From Escherichia coli (GTDB taxonomy: Bacteria; Pseudomonadota; Gammaproteobacteria; Enterobacterales; Enterobacteriaceae), in the NCBI RefSeq assembly GCF_044324785.1, contig NZ_CP172127.1: a stretch of 64,000 bases of DNA; one strand, written 5' to 3'. This document shows, piece by piece, positions 58,601 through 61,600 of the stretch (its first letter is position 1; the number at the start of each line of letters is the position of its first letter). A program made the position numbers.

Positions 58601-61600
58601 GTCAATACCAAAACGCTGATGAACCATATTGTATGCATCGTCATAGCGAAGTCCTTTCTTTCCTACCAGCATGTTTACTGCATCGCGTAGCGGTGTTCTT
58701 TCCTCAACAGTGGTTTTCTTTCCTTTTACATACTCGCCATGTTTGCGAATTGAAGGCAGAACTTCTGCTGTTACCCACTTGCGGAATTTGTGCGGGACTG
58801 AACCTTTATTGACTGCATCGCGGCAGCGCAGAACCAATGTATACATACCTGATTCGCTCACAATGCTTAGATTCTGCTCACCACCAAGGGTGTAACTTAA
58901 AGTTACTCCCTTTTCATCGTCATCAAGTGCAGTAAGCGCCTTGCGTGAGTTAGTCAAATCTAAAGCATCACAAACATCTTTAGCTACAAACCACGGCTCA
59001 CCGCACTTGTTGATGACGCGGATTTCACTGTCGCCGAATTTGAAGATGGTGAAATCGTTTTGTGCCTTTGCTATACTTTTCATGTCAATATTTCCTAATC
59101 CGATTTGTTGATGCCGAAGCCCTGACTGTTACAGCAGTTGGGGCTTCAACTTTACGCACCAATGCGCCCTTCCTTCTTAAAGCTTTCCATTACTCGCTGA
59201 TAAATCTCAGAATTAACAGACCGACCATTTTCTTCCGCCACCTTGCGTACCAAATCCAATACTTCTTTAGGCCACCGCAAATTGAACTGTGGCATTTTGC
59301 TCATTCCTTTCATGTTCACCTCACAATATAGGTCCACGGTGGACCTATTGAGAATATAGTAGAGTGCTTCTATCATGTCAATACACTAACTTGGAGTGAT
59401 GGCATGGCTAGAGATGATCCGCACTTTAACTTCCGTATGCCTTTGGAAGTAAGAGAAAAATTGAAATTAAGAGCCGAGGCTAACGGAAGGTCAATGAACT
59501 CTGAGTTATTACAAATCGTTCAGGATGCACTATCAAAACCATCACCGATTACAGGATATCGCGACGAAGCTGAACGCTTGGCTGATCAGCAGGCTGAGCA
59601 GTTCAAGGCTATAGTGTTTGAGACACTTAAAAAGATTTATGAAAAGGATTTGAAATGAGATTTCTATCACTGTTCTTGTTAGCAGTTGTCTCTTCTTCCA
59701 GTGCTGAGCGGCTTTGTTGAATAAATCGAACTTTTGCTGAGTTGAAGGATCAGATCACGTATCTTCCCGACAACGCAGACCGTTCCGTGGCAAAGCAAAA
59801 GTTCAAAATCACCAACTGGCCCACCTACAATAAAGCCCTCATCAACCGTGGCTCCATAACTTTCTGGCTGGATGATGAAGCTATTCAGGCCTGGTATGAG
59901 TCAGCAACACCTTCTTCACGAGGCAGACCTCAGCGCTATTCTGACCTTGCCATCACTACTGTGCTGGTCATTAAACGCGTATTCAGGCTGACCCTGCGGG
60001 CTGCGCAGGGCTTTATTGATTCCATTTTTTCTCTGATGAACGTTCCGCTACGCTGCCCGGATTACAGCTGTGTCAGCAGGCGGGCAAAGTCGGTTAATGT
60101 CAGTTTCAAAACGCCCACCCGGGGTGAAATCGCACACCTGGTAATTGATTCCACCGGGCTGAAGGTCTTCGGTGAAGGCGAGTGGAAAGTCAAAAAGCAT
60201 GGCCAGGAACGCCGCCGTATCTGGCGTAAGCTGCATCTCGCCGTTGACAGTAAAACACATGAAATCATCTGCGCTGACCTGTCGCTGAACAACGTTACGG
60301 ACTCAGAGGCCTTCCCCGGGTTAATCCGGCAAACCCACCGGAAAATCAGGTCAGCCGCCGCCGATGGCGCTTACGATACCCGGCTATGTCACGATGAACT
60401 GCGGCGTAAGAAAATCAGCGCGCTTATCCCTCCCCGAAAAGGTGCGGGTTACTGGCCCGGTGAATATGCAGACCGTAACCGTGCAGTGGCTAATCAGCGA
60501 ATGACCGGGAGTAATGCGCGGTGGAAATGGACAACAGATTACAACCGTCGCTCGATAGCGGAAACGGCGATGTACCGGGTAAAACAGCTGTTCGGGGGTT
60601 CACTGACGCTGCGTGACTACGATGGTCAGGTTGCGGAGGCTATGGCCCTGGTACGAGCGCTGAACAAAATGACGAAAGCAGGTATGCCTGAAAGCGTGCG
60701 TATTGCCTGAAAACACAACCCGCTACGGGGGAGACTTACCCGAAATCTGATTTATTCAACAAAGCCGTGCTGAGCTGCGCGAGCTTCAAACGGGTAATGA
60801 CCTTCTTTACAACATTCAACAAGGTAAAAAGGGTGATGATTTTTCATCGCTTTACATTACTGGATATTTGCGCGGAGTAACTGACTCATTGATACTAATT
60901 GGTTCTCTATGTCCTCCTGATGGCGTTGACATGTATCAATACACCGATATCGTTGAGAAATCTCTAAACAAAAACCCAGAATCAAGAAATGAGAGTGCAG
61001 TTATACTAACCGCCCTAGCAGTAGGAAAAACATTTCCGTGCAAAAAGAATCAATAACAATAAGGGCTTAAAATGAAATTGATTATAGCAATGGCTTTCCT
61101 TGTCTTCTCGTTTTCTGTCTCAGCAGAGTGCTGGGTCGTTGGAGATATGCACGGAATAAGCTATTCAGAACGAAATAATTTTCAACCGGAAGAAGATGGT
61201 TTTAGTGGAACATTCATCATTAAGACAAACGGTGAAGATGCCAGTATCACATATTCTGGGACGGATGCGGGCGGCATGGCTTACAAAGCATTGTCTAAAA
61301 ACTCCATCCTAGGAATTGGCGCGAATGGAGAAACTCAACGCGTTATAGACTCATGGGTAATACATCCTACTGGAACAGTTTTAATGTCAAAAACCATTTC
61401 CGGTTATGGAAATATGGATTCAACCAAAGCTTTTGTTGGAAAAGTAAAAAGAAAATGTTAACGATAGGATTATGGCCCTACATCAACAGCTTCCGCGTCC
61501 CTGAGTAATTCTGTTGCGGATTTGCTTCTTGCGGTGGTTTAAGCTGGAGAGCTTGGCTTCTGCTTCTGATATTTGCGCATCAAGATCTTTAAGCTCAAGA

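Follow-up and report, generated by a model that had tools for sequence, protein, structure and literature searches.

A probable copy of the phage P22 immunity I switch, with its antisense RNA sar, in an Escherichia coli prophage

Does the region at 59084-59403 of a 64,000-nt stretch of Escherichia coli DNA (the window) reproduce the immunity I switch of phage P22, how closely does it do so, and which molecule does the hairpin in its arc-ant spacer serve? On the basis of alignment and gene order, the region is the control core of a P22-type immunity I (immI) region, or "ant moron", and there is little doubt that the locus is an ordinary copy of this well-studied switch within a P22-like prophage. 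Every testable defining feature of the Rfam sar family and of the immI family is present, and the locus departs from them solely under the stricter measure of base-for-base identity with the P22 allele.

The gene order and orientation are those of P22 (X01916, BK000583), including a tailspike gene downstream of ant. From left to right, the window carries (i) the tailspike gene (55736-58105, minus strand), (ii) ant, an intact ORF for a 292-aa antirepressor (58205..59083, minus strand) with the Pfam domains Bro-N and P22_AR_C, (iii) the 68-nt arc-ant spacer (59084-59151), bounded by the ant ATG at 59083 and the arc stop codon at 59152-59154, both on the minus strand, (iv) arc, an intact ORF for the 53-aa Arc repressor (59152..59313, minus strand; Pfam Arc), (v) a 90-bp control region between arc and mnt (59314-59403), and (vi) mnt, an intact ORF for the 84-aa Mnt repressor (59404..59658, plus strand; Pfam Arc and Repressor_Mnt). 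The same arrangement defines the P22 immunity I region, alias the "ant moron" (PMC2629481). Both arc and mnt are ribbon-helix-helix repressor genes and are divergently oriented from overlapping promoters. Transcription from Pant would proceed leftward through arc, then ant, then the tailspike gene, and transcription from Pmnt would proceed rightward through mnt.

The reference was the curated P22 genome BK000583, in which operators, promoters, sar RNA, and sar terminator are all annotated. Similarity to P22 is far above chance (blastn E = 0 over 563 bp), and 292 of the 320 positions in 59084-59403 are identical (91.2%). The first 30 nt of the spacer (59084-59113), which hold the ant ribosome site and the sar 5′ hairpin, match P22 at 11 positions, while the remainder (59114-59403) matches at 281 of 290 (96.9%). 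An earlier note on this DNA had described the region as conserved to the base and had proposed an alignment with P22 immI as the check. That alignment upholds the description for the arc operator, Pant, and Pmnt, but not for the mnt operator (16/17), the 5′ part of the spacer (11/30), or the region as a whole.

The two divergent promoters overlap within 59348-59381. Pant (59353..59381, minus strand) consists of TTGACA and TATATT separated by a 17-nt spacer and scores 11/12 in the promoter scan, and Pmnt (59348..59376, plus strand) consists of TTGAGA and TATCAT, also with a 17-nt spacer, and scores 10/12. Each is identical to its P22 counterpart at 29 of 29 positions. The 21-bp Arc operator (59356..59376) lies between the -35 and -10 elements of Pant and is the same as the annotated P22 Oarc at all 21 positions, exactly as the earlier note had claimed. 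In P22, Oarc is the site from which Arc represses both Pant and Pmnt, and Omnt is the site from which Mnt represses Pant. By the same layout, Arc would occupy this 21-bp operator within Pant, and Mnt would bind the palindrome at the Pant start site.

The Mnt operator differs slightly from that of P22. Its 17-bp core (59330..59346) is composed of the half-sites GGTCCAC and GTGGACC around a central base at 59338. Both half-sites are intact (59331-59337 and 59339-59345), and GTGGACC is the highest-affinity Mnt half-site (PMC2726951). An exact match had been reported for this operator as well, but the core agrees with P22 at 16 of 17 positions, the central base being G rather than C. Since this central pair is inverted within a palindrome, the plus-strand core has the sequence of the other strand of the P22 core, which may account for the impression of an exact match. 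Just outside the core, base 59329 is T rather than the C of P22, and the perfect palindrome is therefore lengthened to 10 + 1 + 10, spanning 59328-59348. Of the 33 IMG/VR loci that carry an operator of this type, 16 have G and 17 have C at the center, and such an even split suggests that the position is neutral.

The three proteins have diverged from P22 to different extents. Arc is identical to P22 Arc at 52 of 53 residues (98%; Pfam Arc, 9.8e-31), and the lysine that forms the single difference (R16K) is the common natural allele, present in 32 of 33 IMG/VR loci. Mnt matches P22 Mnt at 66 of 81 residues (81%), with a diverged C-terminal part and no change in residues 1-13, which we take to include the N-terminal DNA-reading residues. 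Ant joins an N-terminal Bro-N domain (Pfam, 2.8e-20) to a C-terminal P22_AR_C domain (6.7e-30), whereas P22 Ant consists of P22_AR_N and P22_AR_C; the two proteins share 85% identity over the C-terminal 171 aa and are unrelated at the N-terminus. The earlier suggestion of a probably functional switch agrees with all that can be tested, namely the intact ORFs, the promoters, the arc operator, the Mnt half-sites, and the near-identity of Arc. Nothing in the Arc/Mnt/Ant switch is visibly broken, and as far as can be read from the DNA it probably functions.

A switch with intact elements may also stand idle in a decaying prophage remnant, in which case sar, Arc, Mnt, and Ant would control no lysis-lysogeny decision. 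The surroundings lend this reading some substance. About 50 bp past mnt lies an IS903B-like element (1057 bp; fresh 9-bp duplication), the insertion junction of which occurs in 0 of 5,426 complete E. coli genomes, and the Rap1a/Tai-family gene that replaces P22 sieA and orf59a is here split by the IS. In E. coli C, a 99.7%-identical locus sits in an apparent short prophage remnant beside torI/dsdC. Within the window, no tRNA was found at 40000-64000, and no integrase family matched among the larger ORFs sampled between hsdS and the tailspike gene. The rest of the prophage is beyond the window, including the immC region and the c2-type repressor that Ant would be expected to inactivate. Nevertheless, an idle switch is rather unlikely: the three ORFs are intact, as are the three promoters and the two operators, the Arc allele is the commonest in nature, and phage genes run on to the right edge of the window, so that the prophage may be complete. 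A probably functional switch remains the preferred reading.

The arc-ant spacer is predicted to encode a small antisense RNA. The sar gene (59084..59153, plus strand; about 68-70 nt) was delineated by Rfam family RF00262 and by alignment to the P22 misc_RNA sar. The RF00262 match covers 59085-59151 on the plus strand only and spans the full model (1-68), with 65.6 bits against a gathering cut-off of 43 and an E value of 3.8e-13; P22 sar itself scores 97.8 bits. As in P22, the RNA is antisense to the arc-ant spacer, abuts the ant start codon, is about 70 nt long, and folds into two hairpins; its complementarity covers the whole spacer and 2 nt of the arc stop codon. An Rfam scan of 58800-59800 returned no family besides sar. 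All 15 related phage or E. coli loci that were fetched have a sar-like match, which exceeds the Rfam threshold in 12. Matches to ctRNA_pGA1 on related loci were weak (24-27 bits against a 45-bit cut-off) and were rejected. The RefSeq annotation of the E. coli C locus has no RNA feature between ant and arc, and sar is thus under-annotated in prophages.

The putative sar promoter, Psar (59049..59077, plus strand), sits in the first codons of ant and is directed away from that gene. It is composed of a -35 element GTGAAA (59049-59054), a 17-nt spacer, and an extended -10 element TGcTATACT (59069-59077), scores 9/12 with the upstream TG, and aligns to the annotated P22 Psar, with which it shares both placement and the extended -10. 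The predicted sar start is the G at 59084, adjoining the ant start codon. TTGCTATACT, which forms the -10 element, reads antisense to Ant codons 3-5 (Ser-Ile-Ala) and is kept in several ant alleles whose Ant N-termini are otherwise unrelated, which suggests selection on the promoter. From Psar, sar would be transcribed on the plus strand across the arc-ant spacer, starting at ~59084.

The 5′ half of sar is where the window and P22 part most. A predicted 5′ hairpin (59084..59112, plus strand; stem 59084-59090 / 59106-59112) carries in its loop UUUCCU (59091-59096), the exact complement of the ant Shine-Dalgarno sequence AGGAAA, which lies 7 nt ahead of the ATG. Although hairpin and anti-Shine-Dalgarno loop fall within the 30 nt that match P22 at only 11 positions, the stem is retained, and it forms in 14 of 15 phage homologues despite their differing sequences. 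Because MAFFT shifts the 5′ hairpin by one column between alleles when sar homologues are aligned, pairs were counted for the terminator helix alone, and the 5′ hairpin was judged by per-sequence folds and shuffles. Over 15 IMG/VR sequence types of less than 75% identity, its mean folding energy is -7.75 kcal/mol, compared with -2.87 ± 0.48 for shuffles and -3.32 for the opposite strand, and the observed mean was reached in 0 of 200 shuffle rounds. The two-hairpin architecture of sar is maintained across many alleles.

According to passages in PMC7968456 and PMC3134472 that cite Liao et al. 1987 and Schaefer & McClure 1997, the P22 promoter Psar yields sar, an RNA of 68-69 nt that occupies the ribosome-binding site of ant and so represses synthesis of Ant, and sar has been detected during P22 infection by published small-RNA sequencing (PMC13397905). 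By analogy with this P22 work, sar would be made in the present locus, terminated at the spacer hairpin, and repressive toward ant: the UUUCCU loop would pair with the ant Shine-Dalgarno sequence and block Ant translation. Since neither the 5′ half of sar nor the N-terminal domain of Ant is that of P22, the P22 experiments apply to that half by analogy only.

The second hairpin is the one that the earlier note had singled out. Its arms GAAGCCC (59116-59122) and GGGCTTC (59141-59147) are present as described, but the stem is 14 bp rather than 7 bp long. In the plus-strand RNA, the stem-loop (59116..59147) pairs 59116-59129 with 59134-59147, G·U pairs included, around the loop UACA (59130-59133) and is followed by AACUUU (59148-59153); a repeat finder places the arms at 59116-59128 and 59135-59147. 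Aligned column for column with the "sar terminator" of BK000583, a feature that corresponds to 59116-59153, the hairpin differs at a single loop base, 59133, which is A rather than the C of P22. The proposal that it is a candidate sar terminator was thus correct and concerns an element that is already curated, given the alignment to the BK000583 feature and the plus-strand RF00262 match. It is very probably the known terminator stem of sar, which would end past the hairpin at ~59151-59153, with the hairpin acting as both intrinsic terminator and stability element.

A generic terminator scan, with a rule of at least 5 T in 8 bases, did not call this hairpin. Only a short U-tract (AACUUUA) follows the stem, in a tail that overlaps the arc stop codon; among IMG/VR loci, alleles without a P22-type arc downstream mostly have 4-5 U after the stem. 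The same scan made a weak call inside arc (59275-59292), which was treated as chance.

Folding energies and strand asymmetry indicate which RNA the hairpin serves. The 70-nt plus-strand sequence at 59084-59153 folds with -29.8 kcal/mol (z = -5.96), and 0 of 200 shuffles are as stable. The minus strand also forms a hairpin over this stretch (-22.5 kcal/mol, z -4.06), so the structure could act mainly in the sense arc-ant mRNA as an intercistronic attenuator, processing site, or stabilizer that sets the Arc:Ant ratio, rather than primarily as the sar terminator. The work of Schaefer and McClure in 1997 is said to describe structure in the P22 ant mRNA target as well, as this role in the sense mRNA would have it. 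Such a primary role is nonetheless very unlikely. The minus-strand fold contains interior loops because the plus-strand G·U pairs turn into A·C mismatches, and these pairs (43:61, 44:60, and 49:55 in alignment numbering) are kept in most or all homologues. In addition, the minus-strand stem is followed by GGCAUCAACAAAUCGG, with no U-tract, and the Rfam match is on the plus strand only. Judged by the G·U asymmetry and by the minus strand lacking a U-tract, the plus-strand RNA is the molecule under selection at the hairpin, in keeping with the preferred reading as the sar terminator.

Covariation was assessed for the terminator helix in an alignment of 15 sequences, 14 of them distinct, with 500 shuffles and slid registers as controls. 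Across the 14 distinct homologues, 99.5% of the cells are paired, and four pairs show compensatory (two-sided) changes; none of the 500 shuffles and no slid register reached these pairing and covariation values. A chance palindrome or DNA cruciform was rejected as the explanation of the hairpin on the grounds of strand asymmetry and covariation.

The terminator is also the point at which two lineages meet. From 58205 to 59153, the window is 98% identical to E. coli phage vB_EcoP_Kapi1, thus covering ant and the whole sar region, and over the sar region it is about 99% identical to PhiR12. To the right of 59153, both phages have other arc and mnt genes and other operators. The match to P22 begins at 59114 and continues rightward at 97% through arc and the operators, reaches 100% over 59339-59442, and falls to about 70% in the rest of mnt. 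Judged by these alignments, the locus is a mosaic in which a Kapi1/PhiR12-type ant and sar 5′ hairpin are joined to a P22-type sar terminator, arc, operators, and 5′ part of mnt. Since the terminator hairpin is common to both partners, the joint lies in or at the hairpin.

This overlap, Kapi1-like up to 59153 and P22-like from 59114, bears on a further explanation of the hairpin, in which the near-invariance of its 32 bp is kept at the DNA level. The hairpin would then serve as a "boundary sequence", its short homology allowing ant modules to recombine with arc and upstream modules, and RNA function alone would be insufficient to explain its conservation. In the record of CUS-3, the start of an annotated boundary sequence falls within sar. 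A scan of IMG/VR with the exact terminator stems as query yielded 111 usable loci, in which 33 distinct sar 5′ sequences fall into 16 classes that are tightly linked to the ant N-terminal class and combine freely with 23 downstream-sequence classes; as these loci were chosen on exact stems, the invariance of the stem is by construction and the flanking diversity alone is informative. In homologues retrieved on similarity alone, the stem does vary, through compensatory changes that point to selection on RNA pairing. Such conservation at the DNA level is improbable, but the boundary-sequence and RNA roles are not mutually exclusive.

Other phage and transposon systems offer a functional parallel. 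Like sar, lambda OOP and IS10 RNA-OUT, which are named alongside it in PMC3134472 and PMC7968456, would each be described as a short, structured, constitutive antisense RNA directed against the 5′ region or ribosome site of one mRNA. Unlike sar, they target cII and the transposase, respectively, and they have no sequence or family relation to it; lambda OOP further differs in acting through RNase III cleavage rather than simple occlusion.

The locus as such is already known, the immI switch with sar being textbook P22 biology since the 1980s. Its allele combination is likewise not new. Across ant, sar, arc, and mnt, identity reaches 99.7% in the E. coli C chromosome, the locus is equally close in several further complete E. 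coli genomes, and no less than 80% of the stretch is found in at least 42 complete genomes of the species. A search with the left flank of the window yielded no genome that has the arrangement in full. Among the 111 IMG/VR loci, 10 have the combination, the window itself included. Given at least 42 complete genomes and some 10 IMG/VR contigs with the combination, the locus has little discovery value of its own. P22 knowledge transfers fully to its operators, promoters, Arc, and sar terminator, and by analogy only to the Ant N-terminal domain and the sar 5′ hairpin.

The diversity of the 5′ hairpins allows a tentative proposal, which we hold to be plausible but somewhat less than even in probability. 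The sar 5′ hairpins may constitute discrete specificity classes (at least 15-16 types with one fold and a CU-rich loop), each paired with its own ant allele and silencing only the cognate ant, while the near-invariant terminator may double as a homology patch for swaps of ant/sar-5′ modules among P22-like phages. The "boundary sequence" annotations of P22-like phages already foreshadow, in part, this view of sar as an allele-specific silencer with a recombination patch. If the specificity classes are real, the sar RNA of the window would not repress P22 ant, nor would P22 sar repress the ant of the window.

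On its left, the prophage end in this E. coli stretch is closely flanked by the type I restriction-modification genes hsdR, hsdM and hsdS (47632-53493). The search of 40000-64000 turned up no tRNA gene, and no integrase-family match was obtained among the larger ORFs sampled from hsdS to the tailspike gene, one of which has no Pfam match; this check covered larger ORFs only. The tailspike gene (55736-58105, minus strand) codes for a protein whose head-binding domain is of the P22 type and whose body is pectate-lyase-like; this tailspike differs from those of P22 and E. coli C. 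The gene is adjoined by a hexapeptide-repeat acyltransferase gene (55045-55716, plus strand), which may be an O-antigen conversion gene.

At the other end of the locus, the start of a Rap1a/Tai-family immunity-protein gene (59655) overlaps the mnt stop codon. While this gene is unbroken in E. coli C, in the window it is split by an IS903B-like (IS5-family) element of 1057 bp (59710-60766), flanked by a perfect 9-bp target duplication, GTGCTGAGC, at 59701-59709 and 60767-60775. The insertion junction was found in 0 of 5,426 complete E. coli genomes.

Within 59339-59660, the segment 59339-59442 is 100% identical to P22; after it, DNA identity in the rest of mnt falls to ~70%, and the C-terminal region of Mnt has diverged. 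This has the appearance of a second mosaic joint, near 59443. At the centre of the Mnt operator, the base pair at 59338 is a balanced natural polymorphism, with G in 16 and C in 17 of 33 IMG/VR loci (L017 onward). Among the IMG/VR loci, the Arc allele of the window, K16, is common, and the R16 of P22 is rare. Within arc, the antisense (plus) strand also carries a terminator-like site (59275-59292) consisting of a 5-bp stem followed by CATTTTGCTC; the scan yielded a single such site against a chance expectation of 0.6, so this one is unlikely to be meaningful.

E. coli prophages are under-annotated for the small antisense RNA sar. In the E. coli C locus (NZ_CP029371), which is 99.7% identical to the window, the sar sequence (4880-4947 of locus L003) scores 65.6 bits against the Rfam model, for which the cut-off is 43 bits, and the RefSeq annotation of that locus has no RNA feature in the ant-arc interval.

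Ant (58205-59083, minus strand) is a domain chimera that combines Bro-N (aa 20-110) with P22_AR_C (aa 192-264). P22 Ant has P22_AR_N in place of Bro-N, and the alignment between the two proteins is limited to the C-terminal 171 aa (85% identity). The extended -10 element of the sar promoter Psar, TTGCTATACT (59069-59077), lies antisense to codons 3-5 of Ant (Ser-Ile-Ala) and is kept across several otherwise unrelated types of Ant N-terminus, which argues that promoter and coding sequence constrain each other.
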